Shown here: positions 7,298-63,720 of the stretch, piece by piece
How the letters are laid out: each line of letters starts with the position of its first letter
How positions within the stretch are numbered: the stretch's first letter is position 1
DNA from: Podarcis pityusensis
Taxonomy: Eukaryota
Direction: 5' to 3' (one strand)
DNA: 64,000 bases
NCBI GenBank assembly: GCA_964106645.2
Contig: OZ067040.1
The notes under the pieces: model-generated
The model's input: only the letters and a program-made list of their open reading frames with translations
The model's database searches: none
Told to the model about the DNA's origin: nothing
Program-made: the position numbers and the translations under genes

Positions 7298-7427
7298 ATC
7301 TAATGCATTTGAAGTACTGGCACTCGATGGAGTTAGCACTGGGATACTTCAGTATTGTTCAACCCAGGAGAGTGTTGACTGGCTGAGAGCATTATCAACT
7401 AACATCAATGATTTGACACTACAAAAT
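7298..7427 (+). CDS. SNTG2: SNTG2 coding exon (PH region)
   Basis: Acceptor tttcttcttgctgcag and donor gtatgt. 130 nt reading (1 nt)+SNAFEVLALDGVSTGILQYCSTQESVDWLRALSTNINDLTLQN, matching recalled mammalian gamma-2 syntrophin NAFEVLALDGVSSGILRFYTAQDGTDWLRAVSANIRELTLQN. Confidence 0.95.

Positions 7428-10079: not shown

Positions 10080-10107
<28 letters not shown>
10080..10107. repeat. (ATTG)n microsatellite
   Basis: Direct reading. Confidence 0.9.
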
Positions 10108-10110
<3 letters not shown>

Positions 10111-10517
10111 TGGATTGGGTTTCCCTGCTACTTTTCATTCAAATGACTCTCAAAGCAGCTTGCAAACAATAACAACAACAGGACAGAACATAACATAACA
10201 TCACAAATACAGCATAAATCTTATAAAATAACAAATCATGAATAAGACAATTGCAATCTTTAAAACACTATTAAAAAACAGCAACTAAAAAATAAGCTAA
10301 ACATCACAATGTTCGTATTATATAATTAATACGAGCAAAAGTCATATTATATAATTAACAAATCTATATGGCATTCATAATATAAAAAACAATATTTAGA
10401 ACATTAACAAACTAGCAACTAAATAGAAAAAAAAAGCTAAGTGCTGTTAAGGTCATGCACACAATCTCCACGCTCCCATGACTCATCATCTTTCACTCTT
10501 TTAAGTTCAATAAAATA

Positions 10518-10741
10518 CAGTGGTACCTCGGTTTACGAACTTAATCTGTTCCATAAGTCTGTTCTTAAACCAAAGCCGTTCTTAAACTGAGGTGTGCTTC
10601 CCTAAAGAGGCCTCCTGCCGCTGGTGCCCTTCTACCGTTCGGCTTCCGTTCGTAGACCGAGGTAAAGTTCACAAACCGGGACCCTACTTCCGGTTTTGCG
10701 GAGTTCATATACCGAATAGTTCTTAAACCGAGGTACCACTG
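10518..10741. mobile_element. Tc1/mariner-type MITE (family B)
   Basis: TA-CAGTGGTACCTCGGTTTA...TAAACCGAGGTACCACTG-TA. Same TIR class as family A, with a different interior. Confidence 0.9.
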
Positions 10742-10922
10742 TACACATAAAACCCAATGTTAAGCCAGCTCAGTCAGATGTTGTGCCAACTGGTAGTGGG
10801 CCATGGTAGGGCTCTTGGGCCTACTTCCAGTGGTAAGAGGGATGTTAACTCCATGTAGTCTGCCCAGTCACCACTGATGAGGAAGTTACACACATCAGTC
10901 TCGATAATCAGGATGTCCATTT

Positions 10923-11097
10923 CCCACTTGAAGTCCAAGATGAGCCTGTCCCTCCAGGTTCACAAGTTGTGGCTGCACTTGGTGCAGAGGCTGGCCCGGA
11001 GGTACAGCAGCACTTCCACGCTCAGGACTCTCTTGCTGTCCTGTAGCCCATCCACCAGAAGTGATTCCAACTTTTTCAGTTGCTCCTTGGCCGACAT
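10923..11097 (-). pseudogene. CDC42BPB: Decayed copy of CDC42BPB (MRCK-beta) first coding exon
   Basis: ccaccATG Kozak context, then MSAKEQLKKLESLLVDGLQDSKRVLSVEVLLYLRASLCTKCSHNL*TWRDRLILDFKW versus recalled MRCK-beta [58 protein letters not shown]. One internal stop; GC-rich island in an AT-rich intron. Confidence 0.75.
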
Positions 11098-11377
11098 GGT
11101 GGAGGAGGAGGCAGGGCAGCTACTTGAGTGGACACCAGGCAAGAGGGAGAGGCCAAGATAAAGATGTTGAGGGAGCCTCAGCAGGATCCCGGTGGCCTGT
11201 ATGAGCTCATAGCCAGGGACTTGGGGTTGCGCCTTGGTCTTGGCATCCAGGCCACTTTTCTCACATGGATCCGTAATGGGAAGGGAAAGGCTTAAGCCTC
11301 ATTCCTTTGCACCTTGATCCCAATCCCACCAATTTTCAGTGGCATCTGTTATGACCTCTTCTCCCTGCTCCTTTTTC

Positions 11378-12214
11378 TTTTCTTTTCTTTAATTTTTTTT
11401 GAAAAGTTTTTATTGTTAAAATAAGGTAAAGGTAAAGGGACCCCTGACCATTAGGTCCAGTCGTGACCGACTCTGGGGTTGCGGCGCTCATCTCGCTTTA
11501 TTGGCCGAGGGAGCTGGCGTACTGCTTCCGGGTCATGTGGCCAGCATGACTAAGCCGCTTCTGGCGAACCAGAGCAGTGCACGGAAATGCTGTTTACCTT
11601 CCTGCCGGAGCAGTACCTATTTATCCACTTGCACTTTGACGTGCTTTCGAACTGCTAGGTTGGCAGGAGCTGGGACCGAACAATGGGCGCTCACCCAGTC
11701 GCAGGGATTCGAACCGCGACCTTCTGATTAGCAAGTCCTAGGCCACCCACGTCCCAATTGTTAAAATAATTCAGCATTAATACACACATATTGCGAATAT
11801 ACAAGCATACAAACATACATTTCATACAATCCTTAAAAATATTCAAACATACCTACACTCAGTCCCACAGATAATTCCTTTCCCCATCACCATCCACCAC
11901 CCCTCACCCCACCTTTGTGTTAGACTTCCAATCTACTCAATTGCAATTTCTTTCCACTTCTATTACTTTCTTTCACACACCTTTAACCTAATTTCATGCT
12001 TCTTTTTCTATTACACATTGTTATCCATCTTATTTAGTATTTCAGTATTTAAAACAGAACTTGTTTATTCTAATAGGAGTTCTGATTTTTCAATATGGTT
12101 TTGCAAGTATCCTTTAAACACCTTCCAGTCCCTGTCTATCTTCTCTTTCGAGATTCTTCCAATTTCTCCCGTTGTTTTGGATATATTGTAGTACTCCAAT
12201 AATTTGGCAAGCCA
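11378..12214 (-). mobile_element. 5'-truncated L1-clade LINE (3' end) with nested Sauria SINE
   Basis: Minus frame EWLAKLLEYYNISKTTGEIGRISKEKIDRDWKVFKGYLQNHIEKSELLLE* resembles an L1 ORF2 C-terminus, followed by an A-rich tail. Perfect 17-bp TSD ctccctgctcctttttc (11361-11377 / 12215-12231). Confidence 0.8.
11425..11756 (-). mobile_element. Sauria SINE inserted in the L1 tail
   Basis: (AAAGGT)n tail on the + strand and head ...cacccacgtccc. 13-bp TSD attgttaaaataa (11412-11424 / 11757-11769). Confidence 0.92.
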
Positions 12215-12823
12215 CTCCCTGCTCCTTTTTCAGCTCTTCTGGCTTCAGGTTGAGCTCCACACTGAACATGGAAGGTACACAAATGAGACCACATATCTAT
12301 GAACTTTTCCACAGCACTGCTTGCATACAATTTAGCTAGTATCTGAGTTATACCCAGAGAAGTCATGCCCATTAATATAAGTGTATCTGCTCTGAATGTG
12401 ACTAAAATTAGATGCAAACCCCTTGCATTTTTATGAAGGTGTCAGAAGAGCTGCATGGAGAAATCACAGTGTTTGCTGAGCTAGTTGAAAATGTGTATAA
12501 AAGTGGTGGTGCAATTTGATGTGCTGTCCCTTCCTGCGCAATTTCATAGAAAAAAGGTGGCTGCTCCCATGTACCTAGGGGGCAGCCATATTTTCTTCCT
12601 TACAATGTCCCCGCAAGGCCACCAAGGACGTAAAACGGAATAAAAGATTGCTGCCTTTGGAGTGTCAGGGGAGCAGACATCTTTTTTCCTCTAACGGTTA
12701 CCCAGGAAGGGATAGTACGTCATAACGGCACATCCAGGGCATTTTTTAGATTCATTTTCAATAAGCTCAGCAAGTGCTGGGCTGTCTACCTGCTCCATGG
12801 CTGAAAACTGTTGAAAGAAAGTT

Positions 12824-14261: not shown

Positions 14262-15454
14262 ATCATCATCATCATCATCTATTATTTATACCCCGCCTAT
14301 CTGGCTGAGTTTCCCCAGCCACTCTGGGCGGCTCCCAATCGAGTGTTAAAAACAATACAGCATTAAATATTAAAAACTTCCCTAAATAGGGCTGCCTTCA
14401 GATGTCTTTTAAAGATAGGATAGCTGCTTATTTCCTTCACATCTGAAGGGAGGGTGTTCCACAGGGTGGGCACCACTACCGAGAAGGCCCTCTGCCTGGT
14501 TCCCTGTAACCTCACTTCTCACAATGAGGGAACCGCCAGAAGGCCCTTGGCGCTGGATCTCAGTGTCCAGGCTGAATGATGGGGGTGGAGACGCTCCTTC
14601 AGTTATACAGGACCGAGACCGTTTAGGGCTTTAAAGGTCAGCACCAACACTTTGAATTGTGCTTGGAAACGTACTGGGAGCCAATGAAGATCTCTCAGGA
14701 CCGGTGTTATGTGGTCCCGGCAGCCACTCCCAGTCACCAGTCTAGCTGTCGCATTCTGGATTAATTGCAGTTTCTGGGTCACCTTCAAAGGTAGCCCCAC
14801 GTAGAGCGCATTGCAGTAGTCCAAGCGGGAGATAACTAGAGCATGCACCACTCTGGCGAGACAGTCTGCGGGCAGGTAGGGTCTTAGCCTGCGTACCAGA
14901 TGGAGCTGGTAGACAGTCGCCCTGGACACAGAATTAACCTGTGCCTCCATGGACAGCTGTGAGTCCAAAATGACTCCCAGGCTGCACACCTGGTCCTTCA
15001 GGGGCACAGTTACCCCATTCAGGACCAGGGAATCCCCCACACCCGCCCGCCCCCTGTCCCCAAAAACAGTACTTCTGTCTTGTCAGGATTCAACCTCAAT
15101 CTGTTAGCCGCCATCCATCCTCCAACTGCCTCCATACATTCACACAGGACATTCACTGGTTCTGATTTAAGAGGTAGAGCGAGGTGTCATCTGCGTACTG
15201 ATGAACACCCAGCCCAAACCCCTGATGATCTCTCCCAGCGGCTTCATATAGATATTAAAAAGCATGGGGGAGAGGACAGAACCCTGTGGCACCCCACAAG
15301 TGAGAGCCCACGGGTCTGAACACTCATCCCCCAACACCACTTTCTGGAAATGGCCCAGGAGAAAGGAGCGGAACCACCGTATAACAGTGCCCCCAGCTCC
15401 CAGCCCCTCTAGAGGGTCCAGAAGGATGTTATGGTCGATGGTGTCAAAGGCCAG
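14262..15454 (-). mobile_element. L2 LINE 3' fragment (RT C-half plus 3' UTR)
   Basis: AFDTIDHNILL, GVPQGSVLSPMLFNIYM, SRLDYCNALYVGLP and HITPVLRDLHWLPV motifs with frameshifts. (ATG)n tail. Confidence 0.93.
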
Positions 15455-15870
15455 TTTGGTGTGGGTTTTGTTGCTGTTCATTGTTTGTTGTTGTTTTTGC
15501 GCTGGAAGTTGCTCATGGGACAGAGTGGAATCTTTCAATGCCCTGCGTATCAACGTGTTTCTGAGATCATTCTGAAAGGAGCAGATTCCACTAGAATACC
15601 CGTGAATCCTGCAGTAAGCTCCAAAGCAGGGGTGGGCCAAAATTCACCTGACATCACAGTGACATCAGGCGATGCTGCACTTTGAAGCCCCAATTGTTGG
15701 GACTTAAAAGCACAGTGTGGGGCTGTTCAGAACCTCTTTCCCAACAACATTACTCAGCAGCATAAGAGTAGCGCTGGGAAGAAGAAGCAGTTTCCATTAA
15801 ATGGAAAACACTTCCCTTCTTTTGAGCAAGGCTTGCTCCCTCTGCCCTTAAGTTAATTGGCAGATGGGAA

Positions 15871-18220: not shown

Positions 18221-19077
18221 TTTAAGGATAAAGTCTGCAGCAGATATGGGAGAGGCGGGGCCTGCCACTAATGTAGCAAAAAATCAATAGGTGGGAAAGC
18301 TGTTTTAAAAAGCTGCACCGAGTTGAATCCAAACCTGTTTTTGAACTAAAAAGTTCTTCCTCCAGGGGAATTGCTCTACAGTTAGACAGATATGAAAACC
18401 ACATCTTCTAGTTTAGTTTGCTATTCATAAAGGAACTGTCTCCAAGCTCGTCTGAGGTCATTGTATTGACTGTAACTTTGCATGCCAGCCATCTTGGGAA
18501 TGATAAATTTGTGGCCACAGAACAACTGAGTAAACATAAGGACTAGGAAGAGCAATATCTATTTTTTAAAAAAATCAAGAAGAGTTCTAGATGGCTTGTT
18601 TCTAGCACTTTAATAATAAAGAGCTTTAGAAAGCTCTTTATGCATGCCTTTTATCTAAGTTTTTCCATGCACAATCACCATATTGTATATAATTTGCTTT
18701 CACGTGTTTCTGAAATAAAATACAATACATTAAGATTTCTTCTGAACACAATATGCTGCTATGAGAGAAAGATGAGAGGCAGGAGAGGGTGCTAAGCACC
18801 AGAAAAATATACTATTGACTATATCCAGCTTTCCCCTCCGGTGTAGATTTTTACAGAGTCTACGCTGTAGGGAGCAATTGTATTTGTATTTGGCAATGTT
18901 ATTCTCTAATTTGTGCATATTATGGTAGTATTCTCCACTGCTGATAGGATTTTTATTGCCAAGTAAGCAGTTCCAAACCAAAGACTGAGTTTATATATAC
19001 TTTTATAAAAAATATATAAATTGCATTTTGTGTTGTTGTTTTTTAAAAATGTCACCATGACTTTCTAAGTTCCTCAC

Positions 19078-21801
19078 CATTTACCCCTAAATCTTAAAAG
19101 GACTGAATTTTGGGAACCCTCTAGATGTGGGCTTGCCCCGCAGACTCCTGATCCTAGCGCTTTACAACAAATAGGCAGATCCAGAATTAAATGGTCCCCT
19201 TATGTTAATAACAATTTTGGTATTTGGACACAATCAATGGAAGGTCAACTCCTCTGGGCTGATCTGACTTCCAACGACACTGAAGAGACCTCCCCAATTG
19301 ACCATTATAACACATTAATCCGAAAACTCCAACCGTTATTGTCAAGACCCAGAAGATCTAACCAAAATGACTCCCCTACCAACAAAAAATGGTTTGACCA
19401 TGAATGCACTCAGGCAAAACTTATACTCAGGGAATGCTTTAAGGTCTTCCAGCAAAATCCTAACCCTATCACTAAATTGGAGTTACAACTTAAAAAAAAG
19501 AACTACAAAGAGTTATTAAAAACCAAAAAAAGAACCGCAGACTCTCTCATCTGGCAGGCCCTCATAAAAGCGTCAATAGAAAAAGACAATTCCAACTTCT
19601 GGAAAATTATCTCCAGTCAAACCAAAGCTCCTAATGAGGGCACAATAATCCCTGCAAATTCATGGGAAGAGCACTATAAAGTGCTGTTTAGGGAACATCG
19701 TCCTTCTGCGCCGCTTAACATCCCCTTAGATAATGATACACCATGGCCCCCAACATCTGAAACTGAAATCACTTCGCTAATTCTACAAATGAAATCTGGC
19801 AAAGCCCCAGGAAGTGATTTCATTGTCGCTGAACTTCTGAAAGCGCAAATAAACTGGTGGGCCCCGGTCCTTGCAAATCTATTTTCATATATAGATAAGA
19901 CAACTGAAATCCCTAAAGATTGGGGACTAGCTATAATTGTTCCCATATTTAAAAAGGGCAACCCCTCTGATCCATCTAATTATAGACCAATTAGTCTCCT
20001 GAATGTGATCTGTAAACTTTATACAAAACATCTATGCCTAAAATTATGGGAATGGTTAGATCATAATAACTTGCTAGAAATTGAACAAGCAGGGTTTACA
20101 TCCGGACGTTCCACCATTGATCACTGCTTAGCGTTAGATTACTTTGTCTATAAGTATGCGAAATATTGGAAAAAGTCATTATATGCGGCCTTTGTGGACC
20201 TAAAGGCAGCATTTGATTCTGTATCCAGGAGCAGGCTCTGGGCCAAATTGGCCAATATGGGTATTAACAGAAGGTTATTACTTCTGATGATTAAGCTTCA
20301 TGAGAACAATACCCTCCAGATAAGACTTGCACAGGACGGCAGACTCTCTAGAGAAATCCCAGTCCAAAGAGGAGTTAGACAAGGATGCCTATTAGCCCCA
20401 TTCCTATTTAACATCTATGTTAACTCCCTGGTCACATGCTGCCGTGAAATTGAAACCCACCCCCCTGTGTTCTCTAATGGCAGAAAAGTACCAATTTTAA
20501 TGTATGCGGATGACGCTGTTCTTCTCTCTCAAACCAAAGTGGGTCTGAAACGTGCCTTAGGAAAGTTTAGTGACCAATGTAACACTGAACTGTTAACAAT
20601 TAACTTTGCCAAAACCAAAATTGTACATTTTAACCGCTCCTTCAGGAAGGATAATTGGAGCGTAAAGGGAAACGCCATTGAACAGACTAAGACCTTCCAA
20701 TACTTAGGCATTACTTTCTCTTATAATGCCAAATTCTCAACACACTTGACCACATCAGCTATATCAGCAGAAAGAAGTGCAAATGCTATCCTTAGATTAT
20801 TCAGAAGGAAAGGAGCTGGCTTCCTCCCGATGGCCCTAACAGTCTTTCAGGCAAAATCTTTAGCCCAACTTCTATATGGCTCTCAAATTAGCCCCTCTGC
20901 CAACCTTAAGACCCTTGAAACAGTACAATCTAAATTCTTAAGATCATTATTTGCTACCCCTAAGTGTACACCTAATGCAGTCTTAAGGCAAGAGGCAGGA
21001 CTGCCCAGAGTGGAATTAAAAGTCTGGGAACAAGCAATATCCCTCTGGCTGAAAATCCATTACAATCCTAAGGGTCTATTACCTTGCTTCCTGGCCGCAG
21101 TTCCCTATCCTCCTTGGCTTATGCAAATAACTAACAAGATCAAACAAATTGGCCTAAACCCTGAAAATCTTTTTATTGGAACTCTGAACAAGGCAAAAGC
21201 TACTATCACTCGGAGACTTTATGATATCGAATTACAACAAGAAGGCGCCCTACTCCCAGAGACGTATAGATGTTTAAAAGCTTGGCCTAATTTTGCAGCT
21301 GCCCCTTACTTAACTAACATCACTAACGAAGCCTATAGATGGGCTTTCTCTAGAGCCCGCTTTGAGACAATGCCCTCAGCAGTGCTGTACGGCAAATTCA
21401 CGCGGGTTCCAATGCATGCGCGTCTCTGCCCTTGTATGTCTAATAAGGTAGAATCTGTCACACACATTCTTCTATCTTGCGAATTCTATAGTGAAGAACG
21501 AGTTCAACTTATTTTACCGCTTCTATCAAAATTTATACCCCTTCAATATTATTTGGAATCCTCCCCTGAAATTCTTCGAAAATACCTCCTGGAAGATTCC
21601 TCAAGCTCAATATCATATGAGGTGGCTAAATTTTGCACTTTAGTAATTAAGAAGCGTAAATCTCTTCTGTTGAATGGCACACTGCGAAGTTCCCTTGTGT
21701 AACCTTTTTTCTTTTCTGAAGTTGTTGCTGATTTCTTGTTGTCTGATCTTGTGGTGTTTAGTGTCACTGGCTTTGGCCGCAATAAACTTGAAACTTGCTT
21801 G
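19078..21801 (+). mobile_element. Young 5'-truncated non-LTR retrotransposon, RTE-X-like
   Basis: Stop-free frame 19078-21702. RT motifs KAPG.D, NYRPISLL, FVDLKAAFDSV, GVRQGCLLAP, YADD and YLGI, plus WFDHEC and a C-terminal CPC..ESVTHILLSC zinc knuckle. AATAAA with a short CTTG-repeat tail. Perfect 10-bp TSD agttcctcac (19068-19077 / 21802-21811). Confidence 0.9.
19237..21702 (+). CDS. Reverse transcriptase ORF of the RTE-X-like LINE (endonuclease domain lost by truncation)
   Basis: 821-aa ORF with a complete RT domain and a CCHC-type C-terminal motif. Confidence 0.85.
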   Translation: MEGQLLWADLTSNDTEETSPIDHYNTLIRKLQPLLSRPRRSNQNDSPTNKKWFDHECTQAKLILRECFKVFQQNPNPITKLELQLKKKNYKELLKTKKRTADSLIWQALIKASIEKDNSNFWKIISSQTKAPNEGTIIPANSWEEHYKVLFREHRPSAPLNIPLDNDTPWPPTSETEITSLILQMKSGKAPGSDFIVAELLKAQINWWAPVLANLFSYIDKTTEIPKDWGLAIIVPIFKKGNPSDPSNYRPISLLNVICKLYTKHLCLKLWEWLDHNNLLEIEQAGFTSGRSTIDHCLALDYFVYKYAKYWKKSLYAAFVDLKAAFDSVSRSRLWAKLANMGINRRLLLLMIKLHENNTLQIRLAQDGRLSREIPVQRGVRQGCLLAPFLFNIYVNSLVTCCREIETHPPVFSNGRKVPILMYADDAVLLSQTKVGLKRALGKFSDQCNTELLTINFAKTKIVHFNRSFRKDNWSVKGNAIEQTKTFQYLGITFSYNAKFSTHLTTSAISAERSANAILRLFRRKGAGFLPMALTVFQAKSLAQLLYGSQISPSANLKTLETVQSKFLRSLFATPKCTPNAVLRQEAGLPRVELKVWEQAISLWLKIHYNPKGLLPCFLAAVPYPPWLMQITNKIKQIGLNPENLFIGTLNKAKATITRRLYDIELQQEGALLPETYRCLKAWPNFAAAPYLTNITNEAYRWAFSRARFETMPSAVLYGKFTRVPMHARLCPCMSNKVESVTHILLSCEFYSEERVQLILPLLSKFIPLQYYLESSPEILRKYLLEDSSSSISYEVAKFCTLVIKKRKSLLLNGTLRSSLV

Positions 21802-63588: not shown

Positions 63589-63720
63589 GAATTAGAATTT
63601 CAAGATTTGACAGCAGTTTTAAACTGTATTCACTCATTTATAGCTGCTAAGGTTGCCTCTGTGGATCCATTATTTATTGACAGCCAGAGCATTGCAAGAA
63701 AATATACCTACAGTAATTGA
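63589..63720 (+). CDS. SNTG2: SNTG2 terminal coding exon
   Basis: Long pyrimidine tract plus cag. ELEFQDLTAVLNCIHSFIAAKVASVDPLFIDSQSIARKYTYSN*; the C-terminus fits SNTG2 (...KVASVDP..DSQSLARKYMYSS) rather than SNTG1. Confidence 0.96.
   Translation, partial: ELEFQDLTAVLNCIHSFIAAKVASVDPLFIDSQSIARKYTYSN

Follow-up and report, generated by a model that had tools for sequence, protein, structure and literature searches.

On the minus strand of the window analysed here, a 64,000-nucleotide stretch of a lizard genome (assembly GCA_964106645.2, contig OZ067040.1), lies a locus that we interpret, with a probability of about 0.7, as a dead, 5′-truncated copy of a non-coding retroposon family whose chain of host exons was likely put together through repeated rounds of exon trapping, with an L2-type LINE as the likely copying machinery.

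Structure of the locus

A 17-bp direct repeat at 11361-11377 and 12215-12231 brackets an 837-bp insert (11378-12214, minus strand), and excision of 11378-12231 leaves 642 nt that run from an ATG at 12269 to a TGA at 10774 as 213 codons with two internal TGA codons. These features had been described by an earlier, sequence-only reading of the locus, and they were reproduced with an identical translation. The insertion is a later event and resembles the 3′ fragment of an L1, with a nested SINE-like repeat (11416-11743) that is ~90% identical to copies at other loci. The L1-like assignment is based on an A-rich end and the 17-bp duplication; a family search with the 837-bp insert returned no named family, and L1 and SINE are presumably the correct names for the insert and the nested repeat.

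The mosaic itself begins at its 5′ end with the 3′ part of an AKAP12-type coding exon (12232-12260, minus strand). This piece is interrupted by the target-site duplication and the insert, and its remainder continues at 11377-11343 up to a donor, with 60 of 64 bases identical to C3:66434445-66434508. The following piece, 11255-11342, is intron sequence of the same gene entered from a cryptic acceptor, and it contains the first TGA. Next, at 11167-11256, comes the 3′ part of CCNL2 exon 1 as far as the donor of that exon (82% identity to the CCNL2 sequence at L034); it marks the point of 5′ truncation of the older element. CDC42BPB exon 1 then extends over 10923-11166 up to its donor, covering some of the 5′ UTR and, from an ATG at 11097, 59 codons, and includes the second TGA. 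An internal piece of the OTU domain of OTUD1, aligned to L051 and carrying family-wide deletions, occupies 10748-10922. A later MITE-like insertion (10518-10741), bounded by terminal inverted repeats and a duplicated TA, separates this piece from the AT-rich family tail at 10080-10517, which contains a terminal stem from 10163 and finishes in (CAAT)n. All pieces of the mosaic and the tail are in the minus orientation. A Pfam search of 13 open reading frames in the window gave nothing above the cut-off for the mosaic.

Exon candidates at 7299-7427 and 63589-63711, both on the plus strand, read like gamma-syntrophin, the putative host gene; if so, the retroposon copy is antisense within an intron. 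The candidate at 7299-7427 had no match in Pfam or the PDB. The window also contains a young LINE (19069-21702, plus strand) whose 877-aa open frame encodes a reverse transcriptase domain, and a 5′-truncated L2-like element with a reverse transcriptase fragment and a 3′ end (14290-15460, minus strand), which served as a probe. Contigs assembled from DNA runs under other organism labels span the locus at about 97-99% identity. A 1-bp difference at 11278 in one run (X9) may originate from the AKAP12-type paralogue and was left out of account. No RNA data set was listed as containing the locus, and a single raw RNA run under another organism label, sampled at 12%, had no reads over 10810-11376, a result of little weight.

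A dispersed family with a shared body

A search with 10765-11377 gave 42 matches, and those besides the window were at 65-88% identity. The 42 include two parent genes and two second pieces of one copy, which leaves 38 places with the window counted, and additional searches yielded 12 further copies, so that the family occupies at least 50 dispersed places. A one-off retrogene is ruled out by this number of dispersed copies with a common body and tail. The sequence-only reading was right that the locus is an RNA-derived mosaic of gene fragments on a mobile element, and it missed the multi-copy family, whose element reaches to 10080.

Copies start at various points on the 5′ side but finish at a fixed 3′ end, and they have the tail in common. 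A 35-base tail motif occurred 127 times at two or fewer mismatches, and a query with the tail gave 870 first-look candidates. Of the loci with this motif, 90 were retrieved: the gene-derived body (family A) is present in 11 and a different, tandem-repeat body (family B) in 7, and the remaining 72 break off inside the tail. Family B is a sister family in which the identical AT-rich tail type lies behind a ~110-bp tandem unit; all of its copies are 5′-truncated. Its loci include L128-L157 and L066-L079 (for example L130 and L139), and a search for it gave 234 first-look candidates. The tails of the two families form two clean groups (support 100/98, 34 rows), with a younger subgroup present within A; this comparison is unrooted with respect to which family arose first.

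The median divergence from the column majority was 18% over 37 copies, and the window copy is at 20%. At CpG sites, differences from the parents are about 2-3 times as frequent as at other sites. The family would appear to be tens of millions of years old. A literature search, with Repbase, Dfam and subscription papers outside its scope, returned no description of the family, and an unnamed library entry may exist.

The shared chain opens with USP7 exon 1 and ~60 nt from USP7 intron 1, continues with the 3′ part of CCNL2 exon 1, CDC42BPB exon 1 and the internal OTUD1 piece, and closes with the tail; every one of the four source genes of this body was located in the genome. The middle part of the window frame had been proposed to be the N-terminus of MRCK-beta, and this was borne out: a PDB search matched the residues from 11097 onward to MRCK-beta (E 4e-6), and 11158-10923 aligns with the genome's CDC42BPB exon 1 at 172 of 225 bases. 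The expectation that the similarity would stop at the end of exon 1 also proved correct, as the match ends exactly at the GT donor, with exon 2 of the parent lying 27 kb downstream of exon 1. The CCNL2 parent was named through a copy (L027) that matches cyclin-L2 in the PDB (E 3e-10), OTUD1 was identified at L051 (PDB E 4.5e-88), and the USP7 and IMPDH1 parents were likewise named by PDB matches. The next natural exons were located for CDC42BPB, USP7, IMPDH1, CCNL2 and the PLEKHH2-type gene, and the donors of the parents are therefore considered real. The flanking parts of the frame, formerly left unidentified, are now assigned to AKAP12-type, CCNL2 and OTUD1 sequence. A separate observation is that a duplicate of CCNL2 exon 1, together with ~1.3 kb of intron, lies at a distance of 10 Mb (L033, C8:81505831, versus L034, C8:71475985; 98.6% identity), and the 5′ end of this duplicate adjoins a transposon-like end.

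Splice junctions and private captures

In all eight captured exons, the captured sequence ends at the GT donor of the parent. Between 9 and 12 of the 12 bases before the donor match, compared with 0-5 of the 12 after it (12/12 and 3/12 for the AKAP12-type exon), and the chance of eight donor-exact ends is ~3e-13 even when any GT is counted. The alternative of a simple genomic duplication of CDC42BPB is set aside, and the absence of such a duplication agrees with the sequence-only reading; the locus is an RNA-type, donor-exact mosaic of several genes.

The entry points are less uniform. One join is a natural splice; at the other seven, an AG precedes the entry today in three, is ambiguous in one and is absent in three. 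The AG is found at the AKAP12-type, OSBPL8-type and USP7 5′ UTR entries, and none is found at the entries in USP7 intron 1 (CTG), OTUD1 and the PLEKHH2-type gene. The join between CCNL2 and CDC42BPB is ambiguous because of 8/9 microhomology, with a second possible entry that has no AG.

Eight copies, picked for their long 5′ ends and not at random, were tested for private captures, and private exons were found in four of them (the window copy, L014, L240 and L046), with a negative result in three. In the window copy, the 64 nt of the exon at C3:66.43 Mb, whose match at C3:66434445-66434508 ends at a GT donor, are joined to a pyrimidine-tract CAG located 4655 nt into the next intron, and 88 nt of that intron follow (88% identity over 85 nt to C3:66439167-66439250). 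We take this gene to be AKAP12; a 2367-aa frame lying 15 kb downstream contains three WSK motifs. The AKAP12-type piece is present only in the window copy and the parent.

L014 carries two IMPDH1 exons from which the natural 300-nt intron has been removed (0 of 500 shuffles were equally good), and the IMPDH1 donor is joined directly after a CAG in the USP7 5′ UTR. The IMPDH1 piece is treated as a private capture because it is significant only in L014 and its duplicate. L014 and L015 (C8:47.25 and 47.22 Mb) are a recent duplication, 33 kb apart and 99.9% identical over the 3.4 kb compared. In L240, an exon from a gene with an oxysterol-binding domain, presumably OSBPL8, was spliced to a CAG 1532 nt downstream, and L046 has a private exon from a MyTH4 gene that we take to be PLEKHH2. 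In the latter, the join from the donor into the gene's own intron is suggestive, with an 11-mer at the junction where 0.003 are expected. No capture was detected in the 5′ flanks of L011, L039 and L003 or in the sequence beyond IMPDH1 in L014. In the 5′ flank of L004, a 91-nt stretch is 75% identical to a single other place (L268, C6:99042170) and is not clearly exonic. A pyrimidine tract and an AG lie immediately 5′ of the copy at L026, which resembles a pre-capture state and may be due to chance.

A recurrent layout emerges from these junctions. In three cases, and suggestively in a fourth, a donor is joined to intron sequence of the same gene, and 11-90 nt later a non-splice join leads toward a truncated element. 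Within the shared body, the USP7 donor is joined to intron sequence 104 nt further on, a match reached by 0 of 200 shuffles; the eight control regions were reached by 10-178 of 200. A copy residing in the intron, with use of a cryptic acceptor just upstream of it, would be expected to leave this layout of donor, intron piece and truncated element. At two places the fit is incomplete, as 107 nt between the intron piece and the element in L240 and ~12 nt at the USP7-CCNL2 join are not accounted for.

The tail and its probable mobiliser

The tail has no poly(A) and ends in (CAAT)n or (CAAAT)n. Its layout is that of the L2 ends of this genome. The 3′ end of a SINE in L011, which is tailed by (CTT)n, can be aligned with it. 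Flank matches of at least 7 nt were found in 8 of 90 copies compared with 3% by chance, so that target-site duplication is barely above chance. The terminal stem scored z -2.7 in one of three folds and was not significant in the other two. A tblastn search of the window L2 protein against the 90 tail loci gave no reverse transcriptase contiguous with the tail, and a stem-pattern search returned three places, all carrying the family's own loop, and no partner LINE. From the features of the tail we infer that an L2-type LINE would have been the mobiliser. The SINE in L011 fits the published description of Squam3B, an L2-partnered type (PMC7983390).

Rfam detected no Pol III head in L014, L139 and L011, a weak test given that all copies are truncated and one weakened further by ARAGORN, which likewise missed the SINE inside L011.

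Proposed assembly of the exon chain

We propose that a truncated copy would insert in the sense orientation in an intron of a transcribed gene, where an upstream donor would be spliced to an AG just upstream of the insert or inside it. The hybrid transcript would terminate at the tail of the element, and the LINE enzyme would recognize the tail stem and reinsert the hybrid elsewhere, after which the gene-truncating source allele would be lost. Such steps would have built the USP7-CCNL2-CDC42BPB-OTUD1 chain as a master that was then amplified, and the AKAP12-type capture in the window copy would be a single later event. One join stands apart: OTUD1 meets the tail at a 7-8-nt identity with the start of the family B tail, and this is not a splice join and likely has its origin in a template switch or an exonic insertion.

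The main cost of intronic trapping in cis is that the seven source-gene regions scanned, 20-80 kb each, contain no element body and just weak AT-rich matches, although loss of gene-truncating alleles would be expected to remove the source copies. Further costs are the non-natural entries at which an AG is absent or ambiguous today, the two unaccounted stretches described above, the failure to find shorter masters (for example OTUD1 only), and a partner LINE that is deduced from the tail, with no contiguous reverse transcriptase in 90 loci.

The same observations bear on a second explanation, in which the same family gained its pieces without intronic insertion, by a jump of the reverse transcriptase onto other RNAs (free 5′ exons, or mis-spliced or mature mRNA) or by trans-splicing. 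We regard this as possible but rather unlikely. It would agree with a source allele that survives nowhere in the scanned regions, with the several entry points that have no AG, and with the microhomology at the OTUD1-tail (7-8 nt), CCNL2-CDC42BPB and AKAP12-CCNL2 (2 nt) joins, and template switching has a precedent in the U6-L2 chimeras reported in Anolis and platypus (PMC4476161). However, it does not foresee recurrent joins 11-90 nt past a cryptic intronic acceptor, and a switch onto mature mRNA would be expected to give arbitrary exonic join positions.

Coding potential

It had been suggested that the locus may once have encoded an MRCK N-terminal fusion protein. In the corresponding rival reading, the window copy was a translated chimeric gene joining AKAP12, CCNL2, the MRCK-beta N-terminus and OTUD1 that was later disabled by the L1 and two stops. 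Four native frames do align in the window copy, and both internal stops look secondary, since the AKAP12-type parent has GGA at the first and one DNA run under another organism label has CGA at the second. Against this reading, the ATG at 12269 is flanking DNA, outside the homology that begins at 12260. Only 6 of 24 copies have CDC42BPB and OTUD1 in a common frame; the spacing is most often 65 nt and is 63 nt in the window copy, a 2-nt loss, so the in-frame state requires indels that most copies do not have. Within the OTUD1 part itself the frame is broken in 20 of 24 copies, with frame-breaking deletions common to most, and a frameshift lies within CDC42BPB in 9 of 20. A stop lying a few codons beyond the junction, the same one each time, closes the CDC42BPB frame in 8 of 27 copies, which means that the product of the master from the CDC42BPB ATG would have been a peptide of at most ~63 residues.

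The substitution patterns are close to neutrality. Pooled pN/pS was 0.68-0.85, within or near the neutral expectation of 0.74-0.85, and the window copy has 10 synonymous and 18 nonsynonymous changes (p 0.20 versus neutral) and is more diverged than the median copy. Seven copies pooled showed a mild synonymous excess (62 of 173 changes compared with about 27% expected), which is compatible with a briefly open frame and possibly reflects mutation bias at GC-rich third positions. Taken together, the former fusion protein is not supported, and a once-translated chimera appears very improbable.

Comparison with known elements

Exon trapping is documented as the founder of retroposon subfamilies in hominid SVA elements, which are moved by L1. 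In SVA_F1 (human, MAST2 exon 1) and pt_SVA_D6 (chimpanzee, STK40 exon 1), a GC-rich first exon is joined 3′ to the retroposon; the SVA_F1-type subfamily has ~90 copies, many with further 5′ exons, and its acceptor sometimes cannot be reconstructed (PMC6139936). The SVA behind SVA_F1 is described as polymorphic (PMC12593883). The lizard family is like these two subfamilies in its donor-ended host exon, in amplification after capture and in further 5′ captures. In contrast to them, it has no hexamer, Alu-like or SINE-R part, poly(A) or long duplications, its body is wholly host sequence from four genes with an L2-type tail, and its acceptor is often located upstream of the insert, within the host intron. 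The SVA/LAVA domains (hexamer, Alu-like, VNTR and SINE-R) are absent from the body, all of which is accounted for by host exons and tail, and apart from the ~110-bp tandem unit of family B, none of the other SVA/LAVA parts was seen in that family. The likeness to SVA_F1 is one of mode of action, and membership in SVA fails.

The U6-L2 and U6-AnolisSINE2 chimeras (PMC4476161) also join cellular RNA to an L2-type 3′ end in a lizard with short or absent duplications, but they are single snRNA fusions, whereas spliced mRNA exons, several rounds and amplification are found here. Unlike the Squam3 SINE, the family has no visible tRNA head or CORE domain, and its 5′ part consists of exons of protein genes. 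Membership among Pol III SINEs was rejected because no head was detected, a weak test in truncated copies, and because exons make up the 5′ parts. Processed pseudogenes and chimeric retrogenes made by L1 share intron removal and 5′ truncation with the family, which differs in having no poly(A) or long duplication, 5′ exons instead of mRNA 3′ ends, and one common tail; a processed pseudogene is ruled out by the four source genes in the window copy and the missing poly(A).

Helitron and Pack-type elements carry multi-gene mosaics, as this repeat does, yet capture of the fragments at the DNA level by such a transposon is scarcely credible given the precise intron removal, the RNA-level, donor-exact joins, the variable 5′ and fixed 3′ ends, and a tail made of a LINE-type stem and a microsatellite. 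Membership in the Helitron or Pack-MULE classes was likewise rejected, as fixed termini or terminal inverted repeats and retained introns were not found.

The lizard elements are thus probably an exon-trapping retroposon family outside primates, probably driven by L2. We lean, with somewhat less assurance than for the locus itself, towards a self-extending exon trap, a retroposon without an ancestral body in which host exons are swapped in ahead of an L2-type tail through intronic insertion and splicing. In lizard annotation, copies of the family will be mistaken for paralogues of CDC42BPB, CCNL2, OTUD1 and USP7. L2-type LINEs are described as stringent and as seldom copying mRNA (PMC4476161). 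If the self-extending trap is correct, it would be an independent, multi-round counterpart of the primate SVA_F1 in a LINE system thought to be poor in processed pseudogenes, and every copy would record one lost gene-truncating allele and one cryptic splice site. The family would have shuffled exons from eight or more housekeeping and signalling genes by means of an L2-type tail, a general route around L2 stringency. Such a family would supply reptile genomes with chimeric sequence and would document, in nature, how cryptic acceptors are activated by intronic insertions.
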